NCBI GenBank assembly: GCA_977020255.1
Contig: CDROCS010003779.1
Coordinates: forward strand, 248,001-312,000
Direction of reading: 5' to 3'
Length of the DNA stretch: 64,000 nucleotides
Source of the DNA: Obrimoposthia wandeli
Lineage: Eukaryota
Positions within the stretch are counted from its first letter, which is position 1, and every line of letters starts with the position of its first letter. Of the stretch, positions 1 through 34,610 are shown piece after piece. A model generated the notes under the pieces. It did not search any database. It worked only from the letters and a program-made list of their open reading frames with translations, and was not told where the DNA came from. The translations under genes were made by a program, and so were the position numbers.

Positions 1-959
1 GATGAAAGTCGACGGGTGATGGGTGAAAGTCGATGGGTGATGGGTGAAAGTCGACGGGTGTTGGATGGAAACACCCTACGACCACAACCCGCCCCTTAGG
101 GGCGGGCTCTATTCTCACGAAAATAACTACGATGGGTTTTGGGTGAAAGTCGATTGGCGATGGATGAAAGTCGACGGGTGATGGGTGAAAGTCGACGGGT
201 GATGGGTGAAAGTCGATGGGTGATGGGTGAAAGTCGACGGGTGTTGGATGGAAACACCCTACGACCACCACCCGCCCCTTTGGGGCGGGCTCTATTCTCA
301 CGAAAATAACTACAAATACACGCGTTACAGTATCACTTTACCTCTCACAACTACAAATGTAAACGACCCGTGTCATACTCAAGACCCTAACATACACCAC
401 CCTTAATTCTTGATCTACAGGCACGAAAAACATTGGTCAGATCTATATAATTTAGAGGAGCAAATACAAAATACGAGACAAAATTATTTTTCAAAATATT
501 TATTAAACATAAAACAACATATTGGCTTCACTCAAAGTCCAAAGAGGCTGCATTTTCCCGTCATCACCAAAATATCCATTGAGACGTATTGAGATATTCC
601 ATAGTTCTTCATCTAGAATTGGAGCAATCAAATATCCTAGATCATCTTTAAAATCCAGACTGGGATCAGTTTCAAGCTCGAAACAATTTCCTTCATATAC
701 ATAATCAGGAATGTAAAATCCCACAATATTTTTCAATTTATCAAAATCAGATGTTGTTAAAATTTCGATGAGATATTTTTTCTCCACTTTTGATATTTTC
801 ACAGGATTCATAACTCGTATAATTTGATGCCTCTTTAATATATTACATAGTTTTCCTTTTGAAATTCTTTCTGGATAATAAAAATTTGCTACACATCTCT
901 TATCCATTCTAAAATAAGGAAACTGATTAAAAACAATGTTTATAAAAAATACACATAAG
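1..959. repeat. Left terminal inverted repeat of element 1 (21-bp tandem units, GC hairpin modules, one gene)
   Basis: Units GATGGGTGAAAGTCGA(C/T)GGGT; CCCGCCCC-loop-GGGGCGGG hairpins near 88-107 and 270-289; near-identical to the reverse complement of 16518-17470. Confidence 0.9.
503..907 (-). CDS. Conserved viral protein, possibly OB-fold ssDNA-binding (copy 1, inside left TIR)
   Basis: ORF 503-976; likely start MDKRC at 907. Protein is identical to the 16570-16974 copy and paralogous to 1052-1534 (shared NPV.I and W.I.IRL.GY...P.W.L motifs). The SSB call is inference only. Confidence 0.6.
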   Translation of the reverse strand: MDKRCVANFYYPERISKGKLCNILKRHQIIRVMNPVKISKVEKKYLIEILTTSDFDKLKNIVGFYIPDYVYEGNCFELETDPSLDFKDDLGYLIAPILDEELWNISIRLNGYFGDDGKMQPLWTLSEANMLFYV

Positions 960-1051: not shown

Positions 1052-1534
1052 TTAAAACATATAAATATGAACTCGTTCAATTTCCCACATAGGCAACTTT
1101 GTTCCCATTTCATCTTTCTTGTAACCATAAAGTCGAATTGTTACAGTCCATTGCTTCTTTTTCGGAAACGCATCAATATCAACATATCTTCCATAGTCAT
1201 CTAGAAATGCTTCATCGGGTCCTCGGATATAAAATTGGTTCTTATTGAAAGTAAAATTCGGAACTGCCTTTTCTATTTTCTGTTTAAGATATTGAAAATC
1301 TGGTTTTTGAATATTTGATAGATAGTAGCTGAACTTTCTTCTTTCAATTGTCACAGGATTTACTAAAGCAATCAGTTGAGCCTTCTTCAAGAATCTGACT
1401 TTGTATTTGAAATATTGTTTCACTTCTTCATACATATCCTTATCCGATTCTTCAAATATTTCCGACTCTTCGTCACCGCTTAATACCCGTTGGCTATCCT
1501 CCATCGTTGATAATTGTCTTTGATATGAATGCAT
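1052..1534 (-). CDS. Paralog of the TIR gene (putative SSB-like), 160 aa
   Basis: LVNPVTI...WTVTIRLYGY...LPMWEI aligns by eye with VMNPVKI...WNISIRLNGY...QPLWTL. Confidence 0.6.
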   Translation of the reverse strand: MHSYQRQLSTMEDSQRVLSGDEESEIFEESDKDMYEEVKQYFKYKVRFLKKAQLIALVNPVTIERRKFSYYLSNIQKPDFQYLKQKIEKAVPNFTFNKNQFYIRGPDEAFLDDYGRYVDIDAFPKKKQWTVTIRLYGYKKDEMGTKLPMWEIERVHIYMF

Positions 1535-1539
1535 TTACT

Positions 1540-1750
1540 ATGATTTGTCCTCCAACGACGCATTCTTTTATACTAATTTTTAACAAAAACATGAATCTCA
1601 TTGGTTACTATAACAAAAGCATTGAATTTGATTGGACAAAATATATCATCCAATTATAATAGGTTTGCAAGATAATTACAAGAAACGTGCAATAAAAAAG
1701 CAGGTTCAGACATATATAAAGAAGATTTTATAGAATACAATTTTAGTCTA
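1540..1750. promoter_or_regulatory. Putative bidirectional promoter between divergent genes
   Basis: Several CCAAT/ATTGG boxes (about 1600-1655) and TATATAAA at about 1713, ~35 nt before the ATG at 1751. Confidence 0.45.
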
Positions 1751-2251
1751 ATGAAACTCGTAAATATAAATTATAAAGGTAGAACAGAAGATGATGTTTC
1801 TTACTTACCATTCAATGAATGGAAGCCGAGACAATATGTGGAAAGGTTTGACAATTTCACAGTTGTTATTTTTACTACAGGTTAATTTTTTATTTTATTT
1901 TCATATTGAATTCTTTTAGGAAATTGTCGTGTTATGGGATGCAAAATACCAATGCTTGGGTTCAATTTACCATTTGGAATTCAAATCACTGCAATACAAT
2001 CAATCACGATTTCAGCTAATCTTGGGAAACAGATAAATCTTTTTAAAACTGCAGAGAAAATGAAAGAAGAATGCATGTTTGAACCAGAAATATTTCCTGC
2101 TCTCAGTTATTTGAAGTTTAAACCGCTATGTGTGAATATATTTTTCAGTGGTAAAGTTATGATATTGGGATTGAAAAATTTTGATTATCCAAACATTGTT
2201 GATTTGATTTTAGAAAATATATCTTATTACATCTTGTTATCTTTTCTATAA
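1751..2251 (+). CDS. TATA-binding-protein-like protein, 2 exons (1751-1880, 1920-2251), 153 aa
   Basis: IFTTG-NCRVMG, and NLGKQINL...FEPEIFPALSY...VNIFFSGKVMILG match the TBP repeats (YEPELFPGL, IFxSGKV). A 39-nt GT-AG intron at 1881-1919 restores the frame. Confidence 0.8.
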
Positions 2252-2270
2252 ACAAACCCGTTTAAACTTA

Positions 2271-2552: not shown

Positions 2553-2590
2553 TAATATAAACAATATTAAAAAATGAAAGAGTATATGCA

Positions 2591-3238
2591 ATGGAGCTAA
2601 ATAATAATACTGTATTTCAAATAGTTGGTCCCAGTGGAAGTGGAAAGACACATTTCGTATGTAAATTGTTGCAAAATGAATCTCTTTTCCAATCTAGTTT
2701 CAAAAATATTTATTGGCATCATGGTGGAGGAGGGGAAAGCGGATTAACCAAAACAGAAGTTTGCACGTTGAAGGGTATAAAATTTATTGAAGGATTTGAT
2801 GCTAATTGGTGTGAAAGATTGAAAAAAGAAGATGTAATAATAATTGATGATTTGTATGAGGAGGCTAACAAGGAATCGGACTTTAATAATTTATTTACAA
2901 AGATTGCAAGACATCGTGAAGTAACAGATATATTTATCACTCAAAATCTGTTTCACCAAGGAGGTCACCATAGAACAAGAAATCTTAATGTACATTACTT
3001 AGTTTTATTTAAAAATCCTAGAGATTAAACATTTGTTGATTTTGTGGCCAGACAGGCATTTCCTCAAAATAAGAACTTTCTAGTTGATTCATTCCACGAT
3101 GCTGCTAAAGAAGCACATGGGTATATATTTATTGACTTTACACAAGCTTGCCCAGATGATTTACGTGTTTTAACAGACATATTTAATTCTAAGGGAGTAA
3201 CTGTTTATAAACAAAAAGAGAACAATTATAAAAAATAA
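2591..3238 (+). pseudogene. FtsK/A32-like packaging ATPase with a premature TAA
   Basis: Walker A GPSGSGKT, Walker B IIIDD, ARH and ITQNLF motifs; the frame continues after the stop at 3026-3028. Confidence 0.9.
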
Positions 3239-3245
3239 ATTCGCA

Positions 3246-3386
3246 ATGCCTTTTACAAAGTTGATAGTAAAACGTAAAGTAAAATCTAAGAAATCAAAAA
3301 AAAGAATCATTAAGAAAAAAGAAGTGAAAAAATTAATCAAATCTGTAGTTAAAAATAAAAAAAAACTTAAATGGCTTCGAATATAA
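3246..3386 (+). CDS. Small Lys-rich basic protein (core-like)
   Basis: MPFTKLIVKRKVKSKKSKKRIIKKKEVKKLIKSVV...; the LIKSV motif is shared with 31968-32210. Confidence 0.45.
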   Translation: MPFTKLIVKRKVKSKKSKKRIIKKKEVKKLIKSVVKNKKKLKWLRI

Positions 3387-3417
3387 ACAATATTTAAATT
3401 GAACCTTTTTTATTAAA

Positions 3418-3747
3418 ATGAAGAAAATACAAAGAAGCATACCCTATTTTAAAGCTTTAGTCAAAGCCTCTTCTAATAAGAGAATGATTATTCTTAAAGC
3501 ATTTCCATCTTTTGTTGTAGATGATTTATTGTAAGTTTTGTATAATATAGTTTTGGGTCGAGTAAATGTTGGAAATCGGAAAAATATATTAAAGAAATAT
3601 AGAAAAACTCTTCTAGATATTGCTAATGTAAATAGTAAAAAAAGGAAACGAAATATTATTCTTAAACAGAATGGTGGTTTCATAGGGGCTGTTATTCCAG
3701 TTGTTGCTTCAATTATCAGTAGTATTATAGCTGCGACACGTTCATAA
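3418..3747 (+). pseudogene. Conserved small Polinton protein with QxGGF motif and amphipathic C-terminus; one internal stop
   Basis: MKKIQRSIPYFKALVKA...LKQNGGFIGAVIPVVAS; intact homolog at 31552-31881. Confidence 0.65.
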
Positions 3748-3779
3748 ACAATTATTTATAAAATCAGTTAAAGATATGG

Positions 3780-4862
3780 GTGCTAACCCTTATTTACCTA
3801 AATTTAAATTATCTTTTTATTCAAATTGTTGTAATGAAGAAGATATGGTTCAACCCAAAAGATCCAATTGGCTACACTGGAGTTTCAAAATTAGCAAAAA
3901 GAACAAAACAAAAATACAAGAAAACGCAGAAATGGCTGAGCGATCAGTTAGCCTACAGTCTGAACAAGCCGATGAGAAGAAGGTTTCCAACTAGAGCTTA
4001 CAAAACCAGCGGTCCTAATAATTTATGGCAAATGGATTTGATGGAGATGATCCCATATTCTTCCATTAATAAAGGATATCGATATATTTTAACATGTATT
4101 GATGTATTTAGCAGGTGTGCTCGTGCAATTCCAGTTAAAGCAAAGTCTTCAATAGCTATGCTTGAAGCCATTAAAGAAATATTAAAAGAGGACATTCCAC
4201 AAAATGTGCAAACTGATTTAGGAAAAGAATTTTATAATAAGCAAGTTCAATCATTATTTAAACAAAATAATATAAATCATTACTCTGTGTTTTCACAATA
4301 CAAAGCAGCAGTAGTAGAAAGATTTAATCGTACTCTAAGAGAACGAATAAAAAAGTATTTCACAAAAGAAGGAAATAAAAAATGGATCCAAGTTTTACCT
4401 AAAATAATACATGCATATAATCACTCTGAACATAGAGGTCTCAAGGGAATGAGACCTGTTGATGTTACTAATAAAAACTCTATGGACATTTGGATGAACA
4501 GGAATAAAAAAGATAAAATTAAAAAAGCTAAATATAAGAAAAACGAATATGTTCGAATTTCGAAAATTAGCTCTACTCCATTTATTAAAAACTTTGATCA
4601 GAATTGGAGCGATGAAATATTTTGTATAAGTAAAATTGATCAAAAGAGTAATCCAATAATGTATACTATTAAAGATGCTGACAATAATATCGTTCACGGT
4701 AAATTTTACGAGCAAGAACTACAAGTAATATCAAATAAACCTAGCGTTTTCCGTATTCAACAAATATTAAAATCTAAGGGTACAGGTAAACAAAAACAAT
4801 ACTTTGTTAAATGGCATGGTTATTCAGATCCAACTTGGATATCAACATCTAATATAATATGA
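3780..4862 (+). CDS. int: Retroviral-like (rve) DDE integrase with C-terminal chromodomain-like region; open frame
   Basis: WQMDL, VQTDLGKEF, VVERFNRTL; C-terminal IQQILKSK...YFVKWHGY. Likely start MKKIWFNP near 3834. Confidence 0.93.
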   Translation: MLTLIYLNLNYLFIQIVVMKKIWFNPKDPIGYTGVSKLAKRTKQKYKKTQKWLSDQLAYSLNKPMRRRFPTRAYKTSGPNNLWQMDLMEMIPYSSINKGYRYILTCIDVFSRCARAIPVKAKSSIAMLEAIKEILKEDIPQNVQTDLGKEFYNKQVQSLFKQNNINHYSVFSQYKAAVVERFNRTLRERIKKYFTKEGNKKWIQVLPKIIHAYNHSEHRGLKGMRPVDVTNKNSMDIWMNRNKKDKIKKAKYKKNEYVRISKISSTPFIKNFDQNWSDEIFCISKIDQKSNPIMYTIKDADNNIVHGKFYEQELQVISNKPSVFRIQQILKSKGTGKQKQYFVKWHGYSDPTWISTSNII

Positions 4863-5917
4863 AGTCTATGTATATGGTTTTACCTAGTAACGGATGTCCG
4901 AAGACTCAACCAGATAATTACGCTAGTAGCTTTATTATCGATTGGGAAAATTCTATAAATCTCCAAGGAGAATGGGAAGCGGCTTTAACCGAATTTTCTT
5001 TTTATTATTCTCCAATTACTATCAGAAAAAACTCACATATTTCGTTTACAAAATAAGTTGATCATGAAAAAACAACTGAAGTTGTGATCGGGTTTGATAG
5101 TAAAGGACAATTATATTACAATTGTATAGATAAAGAAGTGAAAGTAATATTTGAAAATAACAAATTCAGATTTAAAAATCGATTAAAATATCTTCAAGTT
5201 ATTAAAATTAACTTTGAATCTAAAAAAGAAGCTCTTCAATTCAGTTTTGATAGTGAACAAACAGTAGCTCGTAATAAACGGGATATAGTCTCATCTAAAT
5301 CGGTTAGAAATGTTCCTGGTATAGTAGCAAAAGTGTTGTTACTTGAAACGAGACCAAAGACTGTAGTGGAACTGAAAAGGTTTTCAAAAGATTATAAAAT
5401 AGATAGTGAAGTGGATTTATGTAAATTAATACAGAAGGAATGTAGTGAATATTTGGATAAATGTGTAAAATTAAATGGTAAATTAACGTTTACGGTAAAA
5501 AGCAGCATACAAAAGGTTTCCTTTGATGATAAACTCACTAAAAACCTTGATTTAAACGGAAATACCTTTGAAACCCATACAATAAAAACCATAAAAGCTA
5601 AAAATAAGGCAAAACTTTTAAATTTTGGTAATAATTTATATATTTATACTTATTTAATAGAACCAACGCTTGTTGGAGGACAACGAGTTCCACTTTTGAG
5701 AACAATATGGATATCTAAAAATGAAACTAAAGATGGCGACGCTGTCGGTATGTGTATAGACCAACCAATGTATCTTCCAGTTGCTCTCTTTTCTATATAC
5801 AATATTGAAGTAAATATTAGAGATGATTCTGGACAACTAATAGATTTCACGTACGGGGCCAAGACAAGTTTAACAATACATTTAAGAAAACAAAATGACG
5901 AATCCAACAATAATTGA
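4859..5917 (+). pseudogene. Minor capsid (penton) protein with one in-frame stop at 5054-5056
   Basis: N-terminal LPSN...GEWEAALTEF; C-terminal YIYTYLIEPTLVGGQRVPLLRTI...PMYLPV...IEVNIRDDSG. Confidence 0.85.
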
Positions 5918-6272
5918 GGCTTATAGTCAAAGCCAACAAGGTGGAAAATTACCATATTTTGTTAGTAAACAATATGGATCTGGCTGGCTTAAAACATTAG
6001 GTAGATTTGCCTTTCCTCTTTTAGAGAGACTCGGGCAATTTATATCAAAATTAGGAAATTATTACCTTTCATCTAAGGACAATAAACTAATATCAACTTT
6101 TAAGAAGCAAGCACTTAATGAACTTGATAATGTTTTACCTGACGTTGCTAATTTGATTAGAAAACGTAAATCAAATAAAAGCCAAGGAGGTAGTGGATTT
6201 AAACGTAAAAAGAAGCAAAAAATCAATATAAACAAACGTAAGAAAGTTGAAGGAACAATATTTGCAAAATGA
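5895..6272 (+). CDS. Small virion-type protein (QQGGKLPYF...GSGW amphipathic helix, basic tail)
   Basis: Motif typical of the small gene preceding Polinton MCP; homolog at about 28920-29300. Confidence 0.65.
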   Translation: MTNPTIIEAYSQSQQGGKLPYFVSKQYGSGWLKTLGRFAFPLLERLGQFISKLGNYYLSSKDNKLISTFKKQALNELDNVLPDVANLIRKRKSNKSQGGSGFKRKKKQKININKRKKVEGTIFAK

Positions 6273-7381
6273 GTTGCGCCAAAACCGAATTGTGTATTTT
6301 TGATAAACCACTTCCACAAGTAGTTGTAGATAATGCTTCCTTTGAAGAAATATTTCTAGTTAACTCAGTTTCAGGAACCACATTAACCGATTTAGAATTT
6401 ACTTATCATAGTTCCAATAGTAAGTATTGAGATTTGAATGATACTTTGCTTTATGTTCAAATAAAAGTATTAAATCGGGATGGTACTAATTTAGAGGAAG
6501 ATGCCGATGTAAAATCTGTAAATTATCTCTTTAATTCTTTATTTAGTAATGCCATTGTTACTCTTAATAATGTCAAAATTGAAGGTGGAAATTCTTCCTA
6601 TGCTCATAAAGCTTTGATTGAAAGTCTTTTGAGATTGAATTTCTTTGAACAACTGAAATATTTAATTCCCGGTGTTAATGTACATCTTCGTTTGAAACGT
6701 AATAAATGGAATTTTTCTTTGATAAGCACAGACGTTCTAAAACCTATACTTGATATTTTGGATGCAAAATTGTATGTCCGAAGAGTTAAAACGGAGCAAT
6801 CAGTTTTAATGGCACATAATATAGGAATGGAAAAAAACAATGCTTGTTATCCTATAAGAGAAACTAAACTTATATCCTACTCTTTAGGTACGGGTACACA
6901 AGCTTTTAATAAGGATCACATTTTTGGTGATGTAAAATTACCGAAATTCATTTTAATTTCTTTTCCAAAAACTGCAAAGTTTCTAGGAAATTATACGACA
7001 GATGCAACTCAATGTGACAATCTTAATGTAGGTGCAGTGACACTTTCAAGAAATACAGATTATCGTGAAACATATAAAACAGATTTCGAAGGTAACAATT
7101 ATGCTTTGGCTTATACGCAATCTATTATTCGGAATTTGGGCCAACTAGATAAAAATATAAACAATGGTAATTTTTTCACTGAGTTTCAAAACAGCTGCCA
7201 GTTCTTCACATTTGTTTTGGCACCAGACTTTGATATAAACCAATGCCAACTACCAAAGGATGAAAATTTACGTCTAGAAATTAAGTTCAATGCTGCTTTA
7301 ACACATCCTATTACGGTGCTTATTTACGGAGTATTTGAATCGGAAATACAAATCAATAGAAACAGAACTGTCATATTATAG
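6269..7381 (+). pseudogene. Double jelly-roll major capsid protein; premature stop and probable internal deletion
   Basis: MSCAKTELCIFDKPLPQ...LEF...Y*DLNDTLLYV, NYLFNSLFS, LKYLIPGVNVHLRLKR, LRLEIKFNAAL. Only about 370 codons long. Confidence 0.85.
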
Positions 7382-7489: not shown

Positions 7490-8815
7490 TTTTCCTACAG
7501 GTTAGTTTTTTTTTATTTTCATATGGAATTATTTTAAGAAATTGTCGTGTTATGGGATGCAAAATACCAATGCTCGGGTTCAATTTACCATTTGGAATTC
7601 GAATCACTGCAATACAATCAATTGAAGTTGTGATTGGGTTTGATAGTAAAGGAAAATTCTTTTACAATTGTATAGATAAAGAAGTGAAAGTAATATATGA
7701 AAAAAACAAAGTCAGATTTAAAAATCGATCAAAACATTTTCAACCTATTCAAATTATATTCGAATCTGGAAAAGAAGCTCTTTAATTCGGTTTTGATAGT
7801 GGACATGTAGTAGGTATGAAGAGATCTGATATTGTCTCATCTAAAATGTTTAAAAATGTTCCTAGTAGAGTAGTTGTGTTGTTAGTTGAAACGAGACCAA
7901 AGACTGTAGTGGAACTGAAAATGTTTTCAAAAGATTATAAAATAGATAGTGAAGTGAATTTCTGTAAATTAATACAGAAGGAATGTAGTGAATATTTGGA
8001 TAAATGTGAAACATTAAAAAATGGTAAAATAACGTTTACAGTAATGAGCAATATAAAACGAGTTTCATTTGATGATAAACTCGCTAAAAACCTTGGTTTA
8101 AACAGAAATACCTTTGAAACCAATACAATAAAAACCATAAAAGCTAAAAATATGGCAAAACTTTTAAATGCTGTTAATCATTTATATATTTATACTAATT
8201 TAATAGAACCAACGCTTGTAGGAAGACAGCGTGTTCCACTTTTGAGAACAATATGGATATCTAAAAATGAAACTAGAGATGGGGACGCTGTCGGTATGTG
8301 TATAGATCAACCAATGTATCTTCCAGTTTCTCTCTTTTCTATAAACAATATTGAAGTAAATATTAGAGATGATTCCGGACAACTAATAGATTTCACGTAC
8401 GGGGCCAAGACAAGTTTAACAATACATTTAAGAAAACAAAATGGCGAATCCAGCAATAATTGAAGCTTATAGTCAAAGCCAACAAGGTGGAGAATTACCA
8501 TATTTTGTTGGTAAGCAATATGGATCTGGCTGGCTTAGAACATTAGGTAGATTTGCCTTTCCTCTTTTAAAGAGACTCGGGTGATTTATATCAAAATTAG
8601 GAAAGGATTAGCTTTCATCTAAGGACAACAAACTAATACCAACTTTTAAGAAGCATGCGCTTGATGAACTTGATAATGTTTTACCTGAAGTTTCTAATTT
8701 GATTAGAAAACGTAAATCAAATAAAAGCCAAGGAGGTAGTGAATTTAAAAGTAAAAAGAAGCAAAAAATTAATATAAACAAACGTAAGAAAGTTGAAGGA
8801 ACAATATTTAATATC
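7490..8815 (+). pseudogene. Chimeric diverged duplicate: TBP fragment fused to penton C-terminal part, plus small virion gene
   Basis: 7490-7622 matches about 1873-2003; 7623-8815 matches about 5074-6266 with many substitutions. Confidence 0.85.
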
Positions 8816-8816
8816 T

Positions 8817-10790
8817 AACCCATCTTCTGCTAAAGACTTTACACGAAAGGACTCAAAAACATCAGCTAAAAGATAAATGTCTAATTTCATATAATAAAGC
8901 ATATATTCAAGAAGATTTCGACAATTATTCACCCAAAATGTACGGGCCTCATTATAGTCTTGAAGACTTACACTTTCAAATTCAGTTATGGGTGGGATTT
9001 CTGTAGTATTTTCTAAATCAGCAAAGGTTTTCGCAAATTTATACGGAAAAATCCCCGTATCGTTAACCGAAGCTGGGAACACTAACTGTGTAATTGGCCA
9101 TGCATTTAAAGATGCCGTTAAATTTTTTAAAGACCCGCTCAAAAACTGCAGAGAATCTATGAATCTTAAACTGCAGAATTCAGTATATGCAGTTAAAGAT
9201 AAATATTTCTCTGAAGTTTGAGGTATACATGAAATTTCCCAAGAGCTTAATGTACCCAACGCGTATTTAAGTATATGATGCAAATCATATCCTTTGAGGT
9301 TATGAAACACGATGGGAATGCGTGGTTTTTAGGGAGACGACGGCCAAGGTTACAAAGGTTGCACGCCGCTCCCAAGTATCGCCCCGTAACATGATCGTGA
9401 TCTCTGACTAACTTAGACTGGGTTTCACACAAATAACATAATCTACAAGATTTAAAATTAACCCAGTCTATGCCTGTCATGATCATTGCTTGATGAGCAT
9501 TGAGATCATACCACGGTTTGACAATTGTTGTTCCTAATTCTTCTAATTTTAACATAAAATCTAAAATACAATTTGGACCGGAAAATTTATGATACTGGGT
9601 AATATTGGGGCCTAAGAATAGTAGTCCTGCCGAAGCCGGTAGGTGAATACTCTCATACTGGTCGTGCAATGCTAAAATTGAATCAAAATCTGCATACACC
9701 CTGAATTCCACGGGTATGCATTTTGCCCAATCCCTGAATTTTAAATCCTTATCCTTAGGCATGGTGTAAAACGTATTGTCATCAGGATTCAGTGAACATA
9801 ATGTCAGATGTTTGCTGTCAGAGAGCTCGGATCGGAACCCATGCAAACATCTATGACACCACTTACACCTTATCCTAACCGGTAAGGCTCCATTATCTAA
9901 ATTTAGAAGACGATCTAAATTGGGAATTGCAGCATAATGGAATTTTTTATTATGTTCGAGCAAAATTAAGTTGACCTGAGTCCCCTCATTTTTGCTCCTA
10001 TAAATGACATCTACAAAAGGATTTTTAAAAATTTCTTCATCTTTTACATTAACTGGGATATCAGTATTATATTTGAATACATTAATACTCAAGTTATTAA
10101 GATGTTCAAATCTTGATATCGCAGTTAATTTAACTGGAAAATCTATTCCATGATACTGCAATTCATTTAAAAAAGGGGTATATTTACTGACACGCTCTCT
10201 ATGCTCAGTAATTACATCCCTTTTGAGGATGGCCAACACGCTATACAGAAAGCAAAGGTTATCACTGTTTTGTACGTTAACAATGGAACGTGAAAGTTGA
10301 AGAGATCTAGGTGAAGGAATGTATGAACTCCCCGAAAGATATATCATGTCAGTGAACTTTGTTAGAACAAAGCTAACATCGTGAATTCTAACTAGAGTCC
10401 ATCCACTACTTAACTCGCTATAATTAGCAATTTTTTCAGTTACAAAATTATCATAAAAAACAGTTGCTTTATGTGAAATTACCCAAGTTTAGTTTCCTCA
10501 TTGACATTTTTAAACTGCACTGTTGCGCAAAATTGAACCTTAGCCTGTCCTAATTTAGTCACTTCTGATTTTAAAAGATTTTCAATATTTGAATCTACAC
10601 CTACGTTTAATAAAATTTCATTTCCTAATGGCACCTTAACTATAACATATTTATTATTTAGGTGATACTCTATAGTAGCACCGTTTTTTCTACGTTTTTT
10701 TGGGTGGGACCTTATTAAGAAATTTGCCTCGCCTCTTTCTTCCGTTTGTCGCTGACAAACCTCCCCCTAATTGAACGGGAAGACAACTAT
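8817..10790 (-). pseudogene. polB: Protein-primed PolB, N-terminal and exonuclease part only; frameshifted and truncated
   Basis: SGWTL...GSSYIP, NLCFLYSVL, VYADFDS (Exo I), RDHDHVTG...ACNLCN (EndoVII-like), FHNLKGYD (Exo II), KLDIYLLADVFE (Exo III). No polymerase motifs A-C in this element. Confidence 0.9.
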
Positions 10791-11215
10791 TTATATTAAT
10801 AGTTGAGACAATCGCAGCTGAGTTGAAGGTGCTGCTATTGTTGATGCTGCCGATGTTGAGACAATCGTAGCTGATGTTGAAGGGGCTATTGTAGCAGGTG
10901 CTGCCGATGTTGAGGCAATTACAGCTCGTGTTGTAGGTGAGGCAACTAATGTTGGTTTCGCAGATGATGCGCTTGTAGACGCAATGGTCACTCGATCATC
11001 AGTAGCTGATGTCATTGAAGCGACTGTTGTGGACGTCGATGATGCATGTGCTGAAATTAATATATTAAAAAATAAATATATTTTAAAAAATTACCTCTAA
11101 GGCGTGCTAACATCGATGTAGGCACTCGAGATGGGGGAGGTATAGCTGTCCTATCGGATGACGGCTGTATCATGGTACTTCCTGAATAAAAAATAAAAAA
11201 TATAATTACAATTTA

Positions 11216-11847
11216 CTAAAATAAAAATAAACCTAATGATGGCAATCCAAGTTGAGCTGGAATGAAGTCCTCTTCATTGACGAAATCCATCCAGCTGTCA
11301 TCCGTTGACTCGACGAAATCCATCCAGCTGTCGTCCGTTGACTCGACGAAATCGGATTCCTCGATGGTCTCCAACCAGCTGTTGTCGCTCCATTGCTCTA
11401 TCTCGAAATCTGACTGGGATATGTCATTCATCCACTCATTGTTAGTCATTTGAGTGGATGGGTCAGAATCAGGAGCCGGGAGACCAATCGCAGGACCGTA
11501 AAAGGGTTGATCGACTGCAACTGGAATTGGAGCAGGAGCTGCCTGCGAATCGCGCACCAATTGCACGATATCCCTCTTCTTGTAGTTGGCTGTGAAACAC
11601 GATAGATGAGCTCGATGTTCACCGAAGAAGTCTCGAAACTCCTTCTCCTCCATTGTTCTGCAGAATGGGCAGACGAAGAAGTGAAGCCCGCGAGACTTTG
11701 TCCGATAGTAGGCGGACATTATCTCCATGCAGGTCTCTCCTCCATGCGGAGCCGAAGCACCACAATATGCTGGAAACAGGATACAAGTAATCTGAAATAA
11801 TAAATATTAATAAGGAAATAATAAATATAGATTCTTACCATAGTCAT
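11216..11847 (-). CDS. Spliced Cys/His-rich (Zn-finger-like) protein with acidic, Trp-rich repeats
   Basis: Exon 1 ATGACTATG at 11847-11839; 47-nt GT-AG intron at 11792-11838 is in frame with ORF 11216-11728; CPFC...H...C; repeated ESTDDSWMDFV. Further introns at 11182-11232 and 11051-11094. Confidence 0.6.
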
Positions 11848-12211: not shown

Positions 12212-12667
12212 TTAAACATTTTTATATGCGCAATGGTCACCATGATTACGATATGGACAGCAAATATTTTGTGGAATTTTTAATAGATGATCACGTGAAA
12301 TATTTAAAGTATTCAACCTCAATTTAGGAAAATATTTTTTTAAAGTCTTATATTTTTTGCCATTCATATCATCTAAAACATAAAAAATTCCATTTTCAAT
12401 ATCAAGATTAGATGTTATTGTATCGAAAATACATATTTCACAAAAAGCCTTATGTCCTTCTTTCCATTTCAATAAATGAAAGTAATTAGTTAGATATAAA
12501 TTAGTAAATTTTTTCTTATAATCTGAACTTTTAAACGGGATATATATTTGAAATATGAAATGCAATGGATGAAAAAGGTCGCATACATCCATAATACATA
12601 TTTCTTTTATAATATAATCCCCATTTTTGTTAATGAAAGCCTCAAAATCTATGATATATTCCTGCAT
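12212..12667 (-). CDS. Putative DEDD/DnaQ-like exonuclease of the type seen in Polinton-like viruses
   Basis: IIDFEAF...YIIKEI, TNLYL...HLLKWKEG, C-terminal CPYRNHGDHCA. Confidence 0.55.
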   Translation of the reverse strand: MQEYIIDFEAFINKNGDYIIKEICIMDVCDLFHPLHFIFQIYIPFKSSDYKKKFTNLYLTNYFHLLKWKEGHKAFCEICIFDTITSNLDIENGIFYVLDDMNGKKYKTLKKYFPKLRLNTLNISRDHLLKIPQNICCPYRNHGDHCAYKNV

Positions 12668-12742
12668 AATTATCTAAATTTGCAGCAAATCCCGTTGTTT
12701 ATAACGAAGTATAACGGAAGTCATCCGCATACTGGTCTCTAT

Positions 12743-16278: not shown

Positions 16279-16517
16279 TCTTGATTTTGATTAATGAAAA
16301 ATAATGAAATGAGGTCTCCATTATATATATAGCGGTTGGTGTATGTTAGGGTCTTGGGTATGACACGGGTCGTTTACATTTGTAGTTGTGAGAGGTAAAG
16401 TGATACTGTAACGCGTGTATTTGTAGTTATTTTCATGAGAATAGAGCCCGCCCAGAAGGGGCGGGTGGTGGTCGTAGGGTGTTTCCATCCAACACCCGTC
16501 GACTTTCACCCAACACC

Positions 16518-17688
16518 CTTATGTGTATTTTTTATAAACATTGTTTTTAATCAGTTTCCTTATTTTAGAATGGATAAGAGATGTGTAGCAAATTTTTATT
16601 ATCCAGAAAGAATTTCAAAAGGAAAACTATGTAATATATTAAAGAGGCATCAAATTATACGAGTTATGAATCCTGTGAAAATATCAAAAGTGGAGAAAAA
16701 ATATCTCATCGAAATTTTAACAACATCTGATTTTGATAAATTGAAAAATATTGTGGGATTTTACATTCCTGATTATGTATATGAAGGAAATTGTTTCGAG
16801 CTTGAAACTGATCCCAGTCTGGATTTTAAAGATGATCTAGGATATTTGATTGCTCCAATTCTAGATGAAGAACTATGGAATATCTCAATACGTCTCAATG
16901 GATATTTTGGTGATGACGGGAAAATGCAGCCTCTTTGGACTTTGAGTGAAGCCAATATGTTGTTTTATGTTTAATAAATATTTTGAAAAATAATTTTGTC
17001 TCGTATTTTGTTTTTGCTCCTCTAAATTATATAGATCTGACCAATGTTTTTCGTGCCTGTAAATCAAGAATTAAGGGTGGTGTATGTTAGGGTCTTGGGT
17101 ATGACACGGGTCGTTTACATTTGTAGTTGTGAGAGGTAAAGTGATACTGTAACGCGTGTATTTGTAGTTATTTTCGTGAGAATAGAGCCCGCCCCTAAGG
17201 GGCGGGTGGTGGTCGTAGGGTGTTTCCATCCAACACCCGTCGACTTTCACCCATCACCCATCGACTTTCACCCATCACCCGTCGACTTTCACCCATCACC
17301 CATCGACTTTCACCCATCACCCGTCGACTTTCATCCATCGCCAATCGACTTTCACCCAAAACCCATCGTAGTTATTTTCGTGAGAATAGAGCCCGCCCCG
17401 ATGGGGCGGGTGGTGGTCGGTGGGTGTTTCCATCCAACACCCGTCGACTTTCACCCATCACCCGAGGTAGTTAGTGATATACAAGAGAGCGAGACATTCG
17501 CCCATCACCCGAGGTAGTTAGTGACATATACGAGAGCGAGACATTCGCCCATCACCCGAGGTAGTTAGTGACATATACGAGAGCGAGACATTCGCCCATC
17601 ACCCAAGCTAGTCTGTGACCTATATCAGTCCCGAGCCCTTCGCGCCAATAGACGCGAAAATTTTTTAGAGAGGGGGACCCCCCCACCT
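16518..17688. repeat. Right terminal inverted repeat of element 1
   Basis: Reverse complement of 1-959, followed by three 47-bp units (about 17452-17600), a TTCGCG/CGCGAA hairpin and terminal GGGGGACCCCCCCACCT. Confidence 0.9.
16570..16974 (+). CDS. Copy 2 of the TIR-borne putative SSB-like gene
   Basis: Protein identical to 503-907. Confidence 0.6.
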   Translation: MDKRCVANFYYPERISKGKLCNILKRHQIIRVMNPVKISKVEKKYLIEILTTSDFDKLKNIVGFYIPDYVYEGNCFELETDPSLDFKDDLGYLIAPILDEELWNISIRLNGYFGDDGKMQPLWTLSEANMLFYV

Positions 17689-22625: not shown

Positions 22626-24084
22626 CGTTTCGATTTTAAATTTTCATTTATTAAAATATTTATAAATTTAAAGCTGAACTCGCGTTTTCACGGTAAAAAT
22701 GTTTAGTCAATATTATAAACACATGAATAAATAAGTAACACTGCAAATAAACAAGTTTCATAAAATTTAAGAAACGTTTTGCAACAGAGCAGAGGATTCT
22801 AATAAAAATATTAATATACCTCATACTACTGTTTATCTAAATAAATTTTTATGTCCAAGTTTTAGGGTTTCTAATTGAAACTCTTAGATCCTCGTATGGG
22901 TTCTGAAGCGATAGGGCTTACAGATGTTTGTGGCCTACCTATTATTATCTTTCTTAATTCGAGTCTCAAATCTGAAGGTTTTCTTTTTCTGTTTGTGTTT
23001 GGTGTGGTGTATAGAGAGTTGTGTGCAATGTAACTGAGAAGGTCATAAAACTAATGTAGTGTGATGTAGGTCTATAGTAGTTTAGATTTTATTTTATAGA
23101 AAGTCTGGTTAAAAACCTAGACTTGTTGAATAATGAAAAGCCGGAGCCAAACGACGATAACGATGTTCCTCCGGTAATATTGGGATACAACAATCCTCAA
23201 ATACCCCAGTGCTTGAAATACCGTCACGTGGTTGTCCCTCGGCTGGCCTATAGCTTAGTGGGTTCGTAAATACCGCGAGTTTAATAATGTGAAGCAAGCT
23301 TTGTTAGTCTGTTCTAATTACTAAACTTTATTTCCTAAAACACAACACGTAAGGGTTCTTAAACACGATGACACAATTTCGCAGAGAAGGGGGACACTCT
23401 AAGTCTTTTTCTAGTTATTTACTTTGTTATTTATTCAGTCTTTTAATACTAGTATGATCTCTCTATTTGAACCTGTCGAACAACTCTTACTGTTAAGTAT
23501 AAACTTGTCTTATACTTTACTGAAAATACGGACGATCGAATACGTATAATTATTCTAATATTGTCTAGGGGACTGCCAACGATACAAGCACCGTACGACT
23601 ACTATAATTCGTACTGAAAATGATATATGTCAAACTACTCAAATTCGTACTGAGAAATAACGATAATGACAATGTAAACTACTTAAATTCGTACTGAGAC
23701 TTAATGTTGTTCCTCACCAATTTTTCCGTTCCTCATCTCTCGTGGTCGATTCGTTTCACTTCCCGTTATCAGTCACTGAATAAGTCGAATTATTGATCCG
23801 ATGTCGGCTTTCCTTTTATTTTCTTGCTAGTGGCGTCGGTTTCGAAACGTATTTTCCGCTCCGCACTGTGGGTGGTCTCGCTCAATCTGTTTGTTCGCAC
23901 TGCGATTCCTCGATCTGCTCCTATGATGCCGTTTGATGTTTAGTTTATGCGTTTTATAAATAATATTTACCCATAATTGGTTTTGTTTAAGAGTTCGCCG
24001 ATTCAATATTTCTAATTTCTTTATTTCCAAAATTCTGTATCTCGGGATATCTGATTTCCAATTTTTGTGCACACAGAAGTGTAA

Positions 24085-24292
24085 AGTGTCGATTCTAAAA
24101 CAATAGCACACAAAGAACTACCCCTACTCCTCCCTCTCCCCCCGAACAAGGAACGAAGAACAAATCACATCTGGAATTCGCTTAGTCATTCATATGTGCT
24201 TTGTTCTTCGTTCCTTGTTCGGGGGTGGAGGGGGGAGGGGGGAGGGGGAGGGTGGAGGGGTAGTTCTTTGTGTGCTATTGATTTTGAACCGA
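24085..24292. repeat. Left TIR of element 2: imperfect ~200-bp palindrome with poly-C/poly-G arms
   Basis: Arm ...GAACAAGGAACGAAGAACAAATCACAT, loop CTGGAATTCGCTTAGTCATTCAT, then the complementary arm. Confidence 0.9.
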
Positions 24293-29302: not shown

Positions 29303-29347
29303 AACGGTAATGGACAACTATTTTAATACAGATTGTTTATAACTGAT

Positions 29348-30506
29348 CTATACAGCGACATGTATGGTAAGGGATACTTTTGCATTGTTGGAAAAACTTA
29401 TTGGGACACCTGTATCGCTTCTAATATTAATTGCAATGTTTGAGATTACATTTGATGCTAAAGGGATATACATGGGTCTGTATATTGCATTATTAACCGT
29501 GTCTCCTGGTGCTTTATTTTTATCTAACCATATAGATGTTAATAAGGGTATCATTTGACCTCCCACGTTTACAGGTTCATACAGACTACCATACAAGTAC
29601 ATGTGATCAAACTCGTAATTTAATCGAGGTTTACCTGACCCATTGACTGTAAATCGTGATTTATCTAACCCTAATACGTACATTAAACGTTGATCAAATG
29701 CAATATGCTCAATTTCATTCTTTAATACAAATTTTATTAGCTTATCATTATCATTCAAATAAAATCTTTTAAATAATACATCGCATTTAGATTTAATGTA
29801 TGCTACTAATGCATTTACATTATTATTATTTAAATCTTCTGTAAATACAATTTTCTTGTTGTATGAACCGGCTTTATAATGCATATATTGTAAATTATGT
29901 GCACCACAATCAGGTCTGATAGATGTTGATCCTTGTAAAACTCCTTTATCATCAGACTCGAAACCATCTGAAGTTAATGAATTGAAAAGGAGTCTTAATT
30001 CATTTTTAGTGTCAGCATCCATCTTGATATAGAATTTTTTGTTGTTGACGGATTTTATTAGTATAACATTATCCTTTTTATCAATACCTACAACAACTGT
30101 GATTAGGGAAATAGAAAGCTTTGCAATCTTATCTTTAGACGTGACGATGAGTTTTGAAATATTATTAATTGTCTTTTTAATAACTTTTGGTTCTGATTTA
30201 TCACCATGCAATTGCGGTTCTTTCTTTTTCTATTTCTACTTGAGTACGAATTACTGATAAAGATATTTGATCAGTCTGTTGATTGAATAATTTAATATAA
30301 TAATTAATTTCACTGCCCTTATTTAAAATAACAGAAGTTTTTGTATACGTAAATTCAGTTAATGCCGCCTCCCATTTACCATTTAACGTAATTGGATTCT
30401 TCCTATCTACAGTGAATAATGAAGCCATATTATTAAGTTGAGTTCTCGGACAACTATTACTCGGTAAAATCATATAGAAGTCTCTATCTGGCTTGCTTTG
30501 ATCCAT
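29348..30506 (-). pseudogene. Minor capsid (penton), frameshifted
   Basis: FYMILPSNSCP...GKWEAALTEF and YLYGSLYEPVNVGGQMIPLL...PMYIPL. Confidence 0.85.
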
Positions 30507-30529
30507 GTTGATTCAGAATATCCATGCCA

Positions 30530-31500
30530 CTTTACGAGATATTGTTTATTCTTACTGCAGCCTTTACATTTTACGACTTCTTAGATACGGAAAAGTGTAA
30601 GTTTATCAATTACTTGTAATTCAGGTTCATAAAATTTCCATGTTATTACATTACAATCATCATCAACTATAGAGTACATTACAGGATTTGCACATTTGTC
30701 TATTTTATCTATCCTAAACACCTCATCACTCCAATACTGATCAAAGTTTTTAAAAGGCTACCACTAAACTTTGATATTCGAACATAATCACCAGTCTTAT
30801 GTTTAGGCTTAATAACTTTATCGACTTGATTACGACTCAACCAAATTTCCATTGCATTTTTATCATTAATATCAACAGGTCTCATCCGTCTAAACCTTTA
30901 TTCTTACTGTGATTGTATGAAGTGATTACTTTTGGTAAAACGTCAACCCATCTTTTATTGCCTTGTGCAATAAAATTTATTTTCAATCAATCTCTCAATG
31001 TTCTATTAAACCTTTCAACTACTGCAGTTTTGAATTGTGAAACTACAGAGTATTGTTCAATATTTAATTTTTTAAATAAACTACCTACATTTTTGTTGTA
31101 AAACTCTTTACCCTTATCGGTTTGCACATGTATGGGGATAGTTTTATCAATCATTGTACTTAGAGCAGCCTCTATATCCTTACCTGATTTAGTTTTTTAC
31201 AGGTAATGCACGCGCATACCTTGTAAACACGTCAATACATGTTAAAATATACTTGTTACCATCATTGATACTTGCATATGGTATCAATTCCATCAAATCG
31301 GCCTGCCATAAATCGTTAGGACCACTTGTTCTGTATGCTTGAGTCGGGAACTTCCGTTTCATTGGCTTGTTTAGACTGTATGCTAGCTGATTGCTCAGCC
31401 ATTTCTGAGTTTTCTTTTGACTCGTTTGACTTTTTGATGATAGTTTGCCAATGCTGCTGTACCCAGCTGAGTTTTCGGGATCGTACCATATCGTTTCCAT
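30530..31500 (-). pseudogene. int: rve integrase, fragmented
   Basis: WQADLMEL, LTCIDVFTR, VQTDKGKEF, AVVERFNRTL, WSDEVF. Confidence 0.88.
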
Positions 31501-31551
31501 TACAACAAGTGAATTTCAAATCGATGTTTGATATGGTATTACCCATTTTGT

Positions 31552-31881
31552 TTATGGGTGTATCAATTTTGCAATCAAAGGAGATACTAAAGTAGCAATT
31601 ATAGATATTAATGCACAGATAAAACCACCTTTTTGTTTTAGAATTACTCTACGTTTACCAGTTTTGCCTTTAGTATTCACTAAATCAAGTAAAACTTTTT
31701 GATGTTTTCTTAGGTTATGTTTATGATTACCGATTTTTACAGTATCTTTTGTAATATTAAACAACACTTCAACCAACTTATCAATAACAAAGGGTGGAAA
31801 TGACTTGAGAATACGTGATCTATATATGCTTGGAGCCTTGATTAAAACCTGAAAATTGGGAAGTTTAGATTTTGATATCAT
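31552..31881 (-). CDS. Conserved small Polinton protein (LKQKGGF)
   Basis: Homolog of 3418-3747. Confidence 0.65.
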   Translation of the reverse strand: MISKSKLPNFQVLIKAPSIYRSRILKSFPPFVIDKLVEVLFNITKDTVKIGNHKHNLRKHQKVLLDLVNTKGKTGKRRVILKQKGGFICALISIIATLVSPLIAKLIHP

Positions 31882-31967
31882 ATTTAATTAATTAAACTAT
31901 TTGCAATATTGTTTATAGTTTAATCCATTTACCAACTAATTTATTTACACGCTTTATATCTGACTTC

Positions 31968-32210
31968 TTAACCGACGGGTTTCTTCTTTTTCTTTAATGG
32001 TTTCCCTTTTACAGGTTTTCTCTTTACTGTCTTGACCGATTTCTTTAATGATTCATCAACTACTTTACGTTGATGAAGCACTGATTTAATAAGATTTTTA
32101 ATATGAGCATTCTTCTTTAGCATCAACTTGTTATCATTAACGTGTAATTTATCACCCAGTCTCCATTTATGTCCAACTCCACTAGGCATTATTTCTTTCA
32201 TAAATGACAT
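31968..32210 (-). CDS. Small basic protein
   Basis: Lys-rich C-terminus; same position as 3246-3386 in element 1. Confidence 0.5.
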   Translation of the reverse strand: MSFMKEIMPSGVGHKWRLGDKLHVNDNKLMLKKNAHIKNLIKSVLHQRKVVDESLKKSVKTVKRKPVKGKPLKKKKKPVG

Positions 32211-32215
32211 GATTA

Positions 32216-32859
32216 ACAGGTAGATATGTTTTTCTTTTGTTTATATATAAAATCATTATAGAAAATATCGGTTCTCACGCGTAAATCATCTGGATATTCC
32301 TGTGTAAAATCTAAAAACAAATATCAATGAGGGTTAGTTGTAACATCTTGAAATGCGTCAATCAAATATTGCTTATTACAAGGGAAGGTTTGACGGCAAC
32401 AAAGTCGACAACCGCTTGATCTTGTGAATTTTTAAATAATACCAGATAATGTACATTTAAATTCTGAGTACGGTGTTGATTGCCTTGATGAAAGAGATTT
32501 TGAGTGATAAAAATCACTGTTACATTCCTATGTCTAGCTATTTTGGTAAACAGGTTATTAAAACCCGACTCTTTATTTGCTTCATCATACAAGTCATCAA
32601 TTACAATGACATTTCCTGAATTTTACCTCTCAGACCATTTATTATCAAAACCATTAATAAAATGAATACCCTTCAAATTACCTAATTCTGTTCGTGTTAG
32701 ACCAGATTCCCCTACACCTCCGTAATGTCAGTATATTCTACCAAACTTTTGATTAAACATGTTTTTATTTTGAAGTAATTTAGTTACAAAATGTGTTTTC
32801 CCACTCCCACTAGGGCCTACTATTTAGTAAACCACGTAATTTTTAAGTTTTGTCATCAT
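32216..32859 (-). pseudogene. Packaging ATPase, fragmented
   Basis: GPSGSGKTHF, VIVIDDLY, ARHRNVTVIFITQNLF. Confidence 0.88.
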
Positions 32860-32889
32860 CAATAATAATAAATCAAAATAAACGATTGT

Positions 32890-33156
32890 TTATATACGTT
32901 TAATTAATATATACAACAACAGAGAATTAAAAATTGACACAGAAAAGGTTATATACATCATGTTTGAACGATTAATTTGAACAAAATTTTCAAAATCCTT
33001 ATTCCGTTTGAAATCTCTATAGACATTTGAGCGAACAATTTCCTTTACATTATCACAAGAAAGTCCATCAAAACTAAAAAAGTATTGAACTCCATTTATT
33101 GTTCCATTTATAATTTCCTCAACTGCCTCATCAACTAATTTATTGTTTTCATCCAT
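32890..33156 (-). CDS. Small tail-anchored-like protein
   Basis: Homolog of 2271-2552 (EI..G.I.G and DN...VRS.V.R.F). Confidence 0.6.
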   Translation of the reverse strand: MDENNKLVDEAVEEIINGTINGVQYFFSFDGLSCDNVKEIVRSNVYRDFKRNKDFENFVQINRSNMMYITFSVSIFNSLLLYILIKRI

Positions 33157-33174
33157 TTATATAAATCATAAATT

Positions 33175-33998
33175 TCAATTGTTTATACCATGAAATTTTA
33201 CATTTCTTACTCTCCGTTCGATCAGGCATTTGCATACTGGACATGAATGTACCATTCTAGAACATGATATACATGTATTTACATGTCTGCAAGGGAGAAA
33301 TACTACTTCAATATGATTATTTAAACATACTACACATTCGGGGTCGTTTAAAATGTATGAAAGTATATTTATATATTGTTTTTCAGGTTCCATTTCTAAA
33401 TAAGATAAATCACAAATCATTTCAAATAGTGATTTGTATTCTCCATATTGCATCATTTTATATTTTAAAACAGATTTTATTCTATCTTTTGCGAAAAACC
33501 TTTTCAAATATCTGATTTGGTTTGTATCCATCAACATATCAAATTTCTCTATAGTTAAAGGATATTCAATAATACAATCTGTTTCGATATTTTTAATTAC
33601 ATTAGCATCATTATAGGGTCTTAAACTATTTGAATAGCATAAATCAGGTAATTTTATATCAATATCTGATACATATACTTTTCCAATCAATGGTGATGTA
33701 TCAAAATCAATTTTTTTATTACTAGTTTCAATTATTGGTACATTTGAAGCATTTAACTTTAATAGAAATGGACATGTAGGAAAAAATTTCATATGTTGCT
33801 TCATTGGTTTAAGATACTATTCCCATTCGGATATTGCACCTTGACAGTATATACATTTTACTTTATCGATTGAATCATCATCATGTTTATAAAATCCGGC
33901 TTTAGCTAAATCATATACAGATTGTTTCCCTTTAAAATTTATAATTAGCGATATTAATCTTTCACTTTCACATCTATATTTCAATGTAAAACTTTCAT
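33175..33998 (-). pseudogene. Inhibitor of apoptosis (BIR + RING) with a stop inside the BIR domain
   Basis: ERLIS...LAKAGFY...DKVKCIYC...W...QHMKFFPTCPF; C-terminal CVVC...FLPCRH..CISC...CPVC. Confidence 0.88.
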
Positions 33999-34120
33999 TC
34001 TATAATAATATACTTTTCGCTTAACTAAAACATCATTAACAGTTTTATAATGAAGTATATAATCAACTAGCATTTTCAAATCATGTAAGAAAAAAAATTC
34101 AACTAAATAAAATTTATTGT

Positions 34121-34610
34121 TTATATCAAAAGTAAAATATCAGTTATTATCCAAGTCACATCAAAGTTATAATCCAAATCCTTGAGACCGAGTATGACCA
34201 CTTTCCCGCTTGCAAATATGTTGACACACAGAGGATTGTGTTTTGAAAACCTCAAAGCAGGAAACAACTCAGGTACGAACATGCATGCAGCTCCACACTT
34301 TTGAGACAACTTGTATAGGTTCAACTTCTTACCTAAATCGACAGTAACCATTACTGATTGAATACGTCCAATCTTTATTCTAACTGGATACTTGAGCATA
34401 GTTGTAGTAATAGGTTTCTTGCAACCCATTATCATGCATGATCCTAATAATAATAATAATTAACTAACATAAAAACATACCTGAATGGAAGATTATAAGG
34501 GTATAATCCTTACAACTGTGCACGTACTGACATGGTTTCCCTAATTTGAAAGGTAAGTGACTGATATCTCTTTTAATTTTACCTTTATAATTAATATTTG
34601 CAAGATTCAT
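34121..34610 (-). CDS. TBP-like protein, 2 exons (34610-34481, 34443-34121), 150 aa
   Basis: 130-nt first exon and 37-nt GT-AG intron in the same phase and position as 1751-2251; FVPELFPAL and IFASGKVVILG. Confidence 0.8.

Follow-up and report, generated by a model that had tools for sequence, protein, structure and literature searches.

A TBP-like gene of Polintons, with a predicted intron in some lineages, and a TATAAAC box before the packaging and putative capsid genes of the same clade

Viral TATA-binding protein (TBP) mimics that have a late-promoter box of their own are a known kind of factor, and the closest described examples are those of the β- and γ-herpesviruses, namely KSHV ORF24, EBV BcRF1, and HCMV UL87, which are associated with TATT late promoters in the accessible text of PMC12529657. 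The TBP-like factor analyzed here, which is encoded by Polintons and which we call mini-TBP, resembles these mimics in its predicted, virus-encoded TBP fold, its more polar DNA face, a TATA-like but non-canonical box that precedes structural genes, and a presumed reliance on host RNA polymerase II. Nevertheless, KSHV ORF24 is a large, multidomain protein that belongs to a six-protein complex and binds the polymerase directly, whereas mini-TBP is a single domain of 144-153 aa, whose whole length corresponds to the TBP core and which has no extra polymerase-binding or C-terminal DNA-binding domains. According to the same portion of PMC12529657, the DNA face of ORF24 is polar and asparagine-rich, like that of mini-TBP, but ORF24 is devoid of the TFIIB-binding acidic residues that mini-TBP keeps (E184 and E188 in the numbering of that paper).

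TBP homologs are also found in giant viruses (Nucleocytoviricota), and the TBP of Heterosigma akashiwo virus is among the best viral structural matches of mini-TBP (E 2e-08, TM 0.72), but most of the matched proteins are longer, and their identity to it is 9-22%. Giant viruses encode their own RNA polymerase; no RNA polymerase gene was seen in these Polinton elements.

Polintons/Mavericks (adintoviruses) share with the elements studied here terminal inverted repeats and the genes for protein-primed family B DNA polymerase (pPolB), integrase, packaging ATPase, and, as far as sister copies are concerned, protease. In the searchable open-access text, TBP in Polinton-like viruses appears as a single label, in the legend to Fig. 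5 of Starrett et al. 2021 (PMC8502044), where "TBP" is marked in MELD viruses with adintovirus-like PolB; the figures and supplementary maps of that paper may carry further labels of this kind for animal adintoviruses. The label is a bare one, in the section on non-animal datasets, and comes with no analysis, promoter, or intron in the text available from that paper. One supplementary text file of the same study and the term-searched text of PMC11161782 contain neither TBP nor TATA, and vertebrate Mavericks are described with eight intronless ORFs, and with TBP and TATA unmentioned, in the accessible part of PMC8097293. The preliminary description of this locus had stated that TBP is not a standard Polinton gene, which agrees with this literature, although the mini-TBP gene marks one broad Polinton clade and is common there. 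The Polinton system is thus undescribed in searchable papers, and this window adds to the known kind a TBP form that is predicted to be spliced, five families in one genome, a codon test of the box, and a correspondence with the engineered yeast variant TBPm3. The open questions addressed are the timing of Polinton capsid-gene expression and the autonomy of animal Polintons as nuclear viruses.

The window, i.e. the whole stretch of 64,000 nucleotides that was analyzed (Obrimoposthia wandeli, contig CDROCS010003779.1, positions 248,001 to 312,000), carries two elements whose features are collected in Table 1. Element 1 combines pPolB, an rve integrase, a packaging ATPase, and terminal inverted repeats, which makes it a Polinton/Maverick. 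Its inverted repeats match over 830 nt at 98% and the repeat continues past the window edge; no 6-bp target-site duplication was evident at the element ends inspected. An adenovirus-like protease is absent from the window and present in sister copies, including those of family A (the query matches PF00770). Neither putative capsid gene has Pfam support for a jelly-roll capsid identity. The 160-aa ORF gives a weak Atlas lead, and a lead only, to poxvirus I3-like ssDNA-binding proteins (score 0.88), and the 151-aa ORF has a start motif that we take to be that of a DEDD-like exonuclease. Both window elements are defective copies: in element 1 the ATPase and the putative capsid gene are interrupted by stops, PolB is truncated, part of the sequence is duplicated internally, and a retroelement is nested, and element 2 is more decayed, with several genes of its cluster broken and each ATAAACA box preceding a same-strand ORF.

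Table 1. Coordinates of the features of elements 1 and 2 within the window
Feature	Position	Strand	Remarks
Left terminal inverted repeat, element 1	1..959	.	extends left beyond the window
160-aa ORF	1052..1572	-	head-to-head with TBP gene; canonical TATAAAAG box upstream
Canonical TATA box TATATAAAG	1713..1721	+	38 nt upstream of TBP-like ATG; early promoter by prediction
TBP-like gene, element 1, exon 1	1751..1880	+	ATG 1751, 130 nt; aligns with intronless homologs
Predicted phase-1 GT-AG intron, element 1	1881..1919	+	39 nt; within Gly codon, S/T-G-K turn of first repeat
TBP-like gene, element 1, exon 2	1920..2251	+	PF00352 E 3.7e-11
TATAAACA box	2247..2254	+	overlaps TBP stop codon; 32 nt before 90-aa ORF at 2280
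TATAAACA box	2556..2563	+	34 nt upstream of packaging ATPase ATG (2591)
A32-like packaging ATPase	2591..3238	+	PF04665 E 4.8e-06; premature stop in element 1 copy
ATAAACA boxes 3207, 3383, 3744	3206..3751	+	precede small ORFs 3246, 3418, 3777
Retroviral-type integrase with chromodomain	3834..4862	+	PF00665 E 2.3e-12
Putative minor capsid (penton) gene	4859..5917	+	named by position; no Pfam match
TATAAACA box	6227..6234	+	in upstream coding sequence; 41 nt before putative major capsid ATG
Putative major capsid gene	6269..7381	+	named by position and size; internal stop; no informative Pfam match
Duplicated piece of TBP intron and exon 2	7506..7622	+	opens internal rearrangement
Protein-primed family B DNA polymerase	8813..11785	-	PF03175 E 5.4e-11; fragmented, C-terminal part gone
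151-aa ORF	12212..12702	-	TATAAACA box 35 nt upstream; no Pfam match
Right terminal inverted repeat, element 1	16518..17645	.	
Element 2 gene cluster	29334..34124	-	ATAAACA boxes 34124, 33186, 32893, 31916, 31555, 30549, 29340
TBP-like gene, element 2, exon 2	34121..34443	-	stop 34121; PF00352 E 1.8e-12
Predicted phase-1 GT-AG intron, element 2	34444..34480	-	37 nt; codon shared with element 1 intron
TBP-like gene, element 2, exon 1	34481..34610	-	start 34610; 130 nt; TATATATA run 31-35 nt upstream

As the preliminary description had proposed, both elements encode a compact TBP-like protein, with a predicted spliced product of 153 aa in element 1 and 150 aa in element 2, and the TBP fold was recovered by profile search: the exon-2 products score 43.2 and 47.3 bits against Pfam PF00352, whose curated cut-off is 22.9, with scoring restricted to the second repeat in both elements. 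The phase-1 intron that it placed in both genes is likewise supported by predicted GT-AG ends at one and the same codon, and the element 1 intron, if left unspliced, would bring in two in-frame stops. Its "identical" first exon, however, is identical in length only, since 85/130 bases agree between the two elements, whose proteins share 74 identical residues. Exon 2 of element 1 has at least 150 matches with 97-100% identity in this 1.35 Gb genome.

Five TBP-bearing Polinton families are present in the genome: A and B, which are those of the window, C and E, which are intronless, and D, which has an intron. The searches gave TBP-bearing families alone, and no TBP-less Polinton family was found in this genome. 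More widely, a profile search assigned 593 proteins, out of 2945 candidates, to the TBP-like family, and the best 120 of these 593 are mostly 144-165 aa long and unnamed or automatically named. Among representatives at 50% identity, those that score below 1e-30 number 61; a further relaxation to 1e-10 brings the count to 791, with cellular TBPs among them. Of the 58 metagenome loci, 25 have Polinton core genes beside them, and the remainder are mostly on short contigs. IMG/VR returned one distant TBP and no relatives of the integrase or the ATPase.

The phylogeny against host TBP was run as a quick tree of 164 rows, which included zero archaeal TBPs and one viral-contig TBP and from which one mis-cut row (L125) was left out; on it, a long branch (SH-aLRT 100) divides the family from cellular TBPs, that of the host included. 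The short forms group together with support (99), to the exclusion of longer forms, L124 and L182 among them, which, as far as the alignment indicates, retain sequence for the N-lobe helices. Over about 90 codons, 11 of the 14 pairs compared have a dN/dS of 0.03-0.37; values of 0.75 and 0.83 came from two pairs of closely related genomic copies within a family, and the remaining pair was saturated (undefined). We also observed a second, more canonical TBP lineage on Polinton-like contigs in bacterial bins (L184:11568-12122 and L188:2446-2976), which falls on the cellular side of the tree and was not found in this genome. The host itself has four TBP-family loci, some of them divergent (contigs C238, C968, C60, and C1092 of assembly G000, loci L031-L040), where two genes on C238 are arranged head-to-head and a divergent paralog without introns occurs on two contigs. 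The best matches of the canonical host TBP include brachiopod, nemertean, and mollusc TBPs, below a few fused or duplicated entries. The assembly includes bacterial contigs, as indicated by bacterial GroEL loci (L278-L281 and similar).

The structure was predicted for an intronless paralog (L044, 119-row alignment) that is 52% identical to the window protein over exon 2. The model has a pLDDT of 95.2 and no helix in residues 1-81. In Foldseek against the PDB, all 44 matches below E 0.001 belong to the TBP block, with TM 0.66-0.77, and in VIA all 144 residues of the model align to TBP, with Z up to 13.9 and an rmsd of 2.4 Å. Mini-TBP is thus predicted to be a full two-repeat TBP saddle without both N-lobe helices, and the deletions in the alignment match the helices missing from the model. 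The contacts of TFIIA, TAF1, Brf1, and Mot1 lie on these helices.

Residues were counted in the 119 aligned homologs at yeast TBP positions, a numbering that we assume to carry over to mini-TBP through the alignment to cellular TBP. Like cellular TBP/TRF proteins (PF00352; host and archaeal), mini-TBP has the two-repeat saddle and keeps F116, F190, F207, P191, N69, and the predicted acidic TFIIB-binding stirrup, where E186 is Glu or Asp in 118/119 and E188 is present in 119/119. The F99 position is variable (Cys, Leu, Tyr, Phe, or Ile), so that three of the four intercalating Phe are retained. Mini-TBP differs from cellular TBP, to which it is about 25% identical, in that its model has neither N-lobe helix, Phe is not conserved at position 99, and the DNA face shows fixed changes: V71 to Asn (114/117), V122 to Arg (116/119), T124 to Met (119/119), N159 to Ser (116/119), I194 to Arg (118/119), V203 to Cys (119/119), and L205 to Asn (119/119). 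V161 to Thr is near-invariant as well, and in family A the near-invariant Arg of the I194 position is replaced by Ser. The specificity of yeast TBP was altered by mutating I194, V203, and L205, the TBPm3 positions, according to the available text of PMC1636458.

Two promoter classes are present, with a canonical TATA at the TBP gene and a non-canonical TATAAAC at packaging and structural genes. In both elements of the window, most same-strand ORFs of the structural cluster are preceded by ATAAACA at about 30-45 nt, and the TBP gene has a canonical TATA, which precedes the TBP-like ATG in 30/30 family-A copies; the TATAAACA box at the TBP stop codon is conserved in 26/30 of these. The preliminary description had seen clear TATA boxes at many genes, which is correct for the TBP gene, whereas most other boxes are TATAAACA, a non-standard sequence. 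The box consensus is (T/C)ATAAAC(A/G).

Promoters were counted over all loci after removal of near-duplicate upstream regions, with starts assigned by homology where the match reached the N-terminus. ATAAAC is found 28-56 nt before the ATG of the ATPase in 17/18, the capsid gene in 9/11, and the exonuclease in 13/15 cases (39/44 together), versus 1/37 TBP starts, which places the non-canonical box at structural and not at early genes, as in herpesviruses, with "early" and "late" classes assigned from the type of gene. In 200 shuffles, ATAAAC at ATPase, capsid, and exonuclease starts reached means of about 0.5 and maxima of 3, although the P values overstate independence, because the loci are related to one another and the range of 28-56 nt was chosen once the data had been inspected. 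Conversely, TATAWAWR precedes 15/37 TBP starts (shuffle mean 2.3, maximum 8), the other 22 being without it, versus 4/44 starts of the ATPase, capsid, and exonuclease genes. The ATAAAC box is less regular at penton (5/15), integrase (4/12), core (1/8), and SSB-like (3/12) starts.

Where the box falls inside coding DNA, it is conserved at the DNA level, judging from codon choice: Ile-Asn is written ATA AAC in 18/26 cases near the end of the upstream gene versus 10/81 elsewhere (near-duplicates kept). The distance from box to ATG is 31-56 nt, and that from box to upstream stop is scattered. We rejected a role as terminator or poly(A) signal, given that the box often lies inside the coding sequence upstream and follows the position of the ATG downstream. 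In seven Polinton-like contigs without this TBP lineage, which are distant and mostly partial and whose first-ATG starts were guessed, ATAAAC was found at box distance before the ATPase in none (0/7). L184, which has the second TBP lineage, shows TATAAGAA before 3/12 starts. At L181, this TBP lineage is present, yet there is no ATAAAC box before the ATPase. Box and TBP may also be two traits that occur in one clade independently of each other.

Putting together the gene anatomy, the Polinton context, the conservation across the clade, and the promoter classes with their spacing, we infer DNA binding by mini-TBP, the timing of expression, and the recruitment of TFIIB and polymerase. On balance we favor the hypothesis that the Polinton mini-TBP is a one-protein late-gene switch that reads the TATAAAC box of packaging and putative capsid genes. 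The mini-TBP gene itself would be transcribed early, from its canonical TATA box, by host TBP and RNA polymerase II, and the host spliceosome would excise the intron where present. Mini-TBP would then bind (T/C)ATAAAC(A/G) by its rewired DNA face and recruit host TFIIB through the retained acidic stirrup, which would bring polymerase II to the packaging and capsid genes. It might also escape TFIIA/TAF/Mot1-type control, because the helical surface used by those regulators is gone. The self-supplied TATA-dependent programme suggested by the preliminary description is plausible as a self-supplied one, but the evidence favors two promoter classes, the structural genes having TATAAAC and not TATA.

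A broader version of this hypothesis, to which we give slightly less than even chances, is that animal Polintons of one widespread clade have an early-to-late cascade that is nuclear and autonomous, run by a single minimal, rewired TBP of 150 residues that reads its own core promoter (TATAAAC), with host TFIIB and polymerase II and with the surfaces for host regulators shed. A one-gene TBP switch with a recognizable box can be tested with a single protein and a reporter. If true, no smaller way for a virus to take over initiation by polymerase II would be known, mini-TBP would be a TBP whose specificity was altered in nature at the three positions engineered in yeast TBPm3, and the second TBP lineage with TATAAGAA would point to natural orthogonal TBP-promoter pairs. 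The introns would, in that case, confirm host-nuclear expression without a giant-virus helper.

Alternatively, the TATAAAC box could be read by a host factor, either host TBP on a weak TATA variant or a Forkhead protein, with the element TBP having another role or adding TBP activity. ATAAACA fits the Forkhead consensus, and its resemblance to a Forkhead site speaks for such a reader. Cellular TBP can also tolerate C at -25, as suggested by PDB 1qn3, which by its title is TBP on a C(-25) TATA variant, and four host TBP-family loci, some divergent, could supply a reader. Nevertheless, GTAAAC, the form preferred by Forkhead proteins, occurs at box distance before 2/53 starts, and the reverse orientation before 0/53, whereas the box has a fixed spacing and is strand-specific. 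A host reader would also leave unexplained the sharp split between TBP gene and structural genes and the invariant changes of the DNA face, and we consider it unlikely.

Less likely again, in our estimation, is that mini-TBP acts as a decoy or repressor, binding TFIIB or TATA DNA unproductively and so dampening host or early transcription. Such a role would fit a protein that retains its acidic stirrup (E188 in 119/119) but has lost both N-lobe helices, one of the intercalating Phe, and all but one of the four central polar contacts. However, the changes of the DNA face are fixed new residues and not decay, and a matching box is present before the structural genes, both of which speak against such a role. 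A role outside transcription, in which mini-TBP would bind and bend element DNA for replication, integration, or packaging, is suggested by the frequent position of the TBP gene next to an ssDNA-binding-protein-like ORF, an exonuclease-like ORF, or PolB, but seems very improbable given that the stirrup is conserved and that the boxes follow start codons and not element ends.

The intron was followed in 30 family-A copies, picked by exon-2 score. It is 35-41 nt long, with GT-AG ends in 29/30 and GC-AG in 1/30, and its length is a multiple of three in 4/30 only; exon 1 is 130 nt in 26 of the 28 measurable copies among the 30 examined. Intronless homologs are collinear across the junction. The ends are GT-AG at the same codon in families A and B and in one metagenome locus (L118), with differing intron sequences, and family D has the intron at that codon with damaged splice sites, the donor being affected in both copies seen. 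Among the 58 metagenome relatives, 56 are readable at the junction, and the intron is absent from 55/56, L118 (41 nt) being the single locus to have it; intron-bearing loci are under-sampled in this set, because, of the two search patterns, one runs across the junction. Some representative proteins begin at profile position 49, like exon-2-only ORFs, which is a hint only. The intron was called conserved in the preliminary description, and it is indeed shared by families A and B, but it is missing in these 55 loci and in two of the five TBP-bearing families of this genome (C and E).

Four host introns measured 47, 48, 85, and 105 nt, and the short-intron peak of Schmidtea is at 45-85 nt in the available text of PMC13594981, which makes the Polinton TBP introns small even by the standard of a host with short introns. 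We rejected a derivation of the intron from host TBP, the observed host TBP introns being at different positions. Gain and loss on the quick tree require two changes, with weak support. The intron is very likely real, lineage-restricted, and incidental, the last because most relatives are without it. The best explanation, and in our view a probable one, is a host-style gain in a few lineages that is dispensable for function. An unspliced, AT-rich insertion in dead copies would agree with the absence of the intron from most relatives and with the damaged splice sites of both family-D copies seen, but it is highly improbable, as GT-AG ends persist at one codon in A, B, and L118 despite differing sequences, the intron varies between 35 and 41 nt (4/30 multiples of three) next to a constant 130-nt exon 1, and families A and B are both high-copy. 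In itself the intron is ordinary; it hides the TBP-like gene from ORF callers and matters as a sign of host-nuclear transcription. Short GT-AG intron-like stretches were also observed in further presumed early genes of related elements, upstream of the SSB-like ORF at five loci (L080, L083, L084, L087, and L098) and at the PolB start of L071.

Several other features of the elements were observed. A pair of paralogous ORFs (503-907 and 1052-1534, minus strand; also 16435-16974), to which the weak Atlas lead to poxvirus I3 ssDNA-binding proteins applies, has one member within the inverted repeat; one has a canonical TATA and the other a TATAAAC box. A small Met-Gly ORF with its own box, found in several families, overlaps the integrase start (from 3777 onward on the plus strand, and from 31545 downward on the minus strand). 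The reverse transcriptase in element 1 was rejected as a Polinton gene, as it is part of a separate retroelement family: the reverse transcriptase/RNase H element nested at 12720 to about 16300 (minus strand) has at least 150 matches. Ten of 29 other loci of this retroelement carry nearby family-A Polinton DNA, at varying places, which may reflect a preference for Polintons or merely their abundance. In element 2, an IAP-like RING gene (33175-34085, minus strand) with a TATAAACA box upstream lies directly 3' of the family B TBP gene. Duplicated PolB and penton fragments occupy 24826-26711 and include a perfect 111-nt inverted repeat at 25339-25561, and the two ends of the element (24079-24302 and 35796-35998) are near-palindromic hairpins of about 200 nt.
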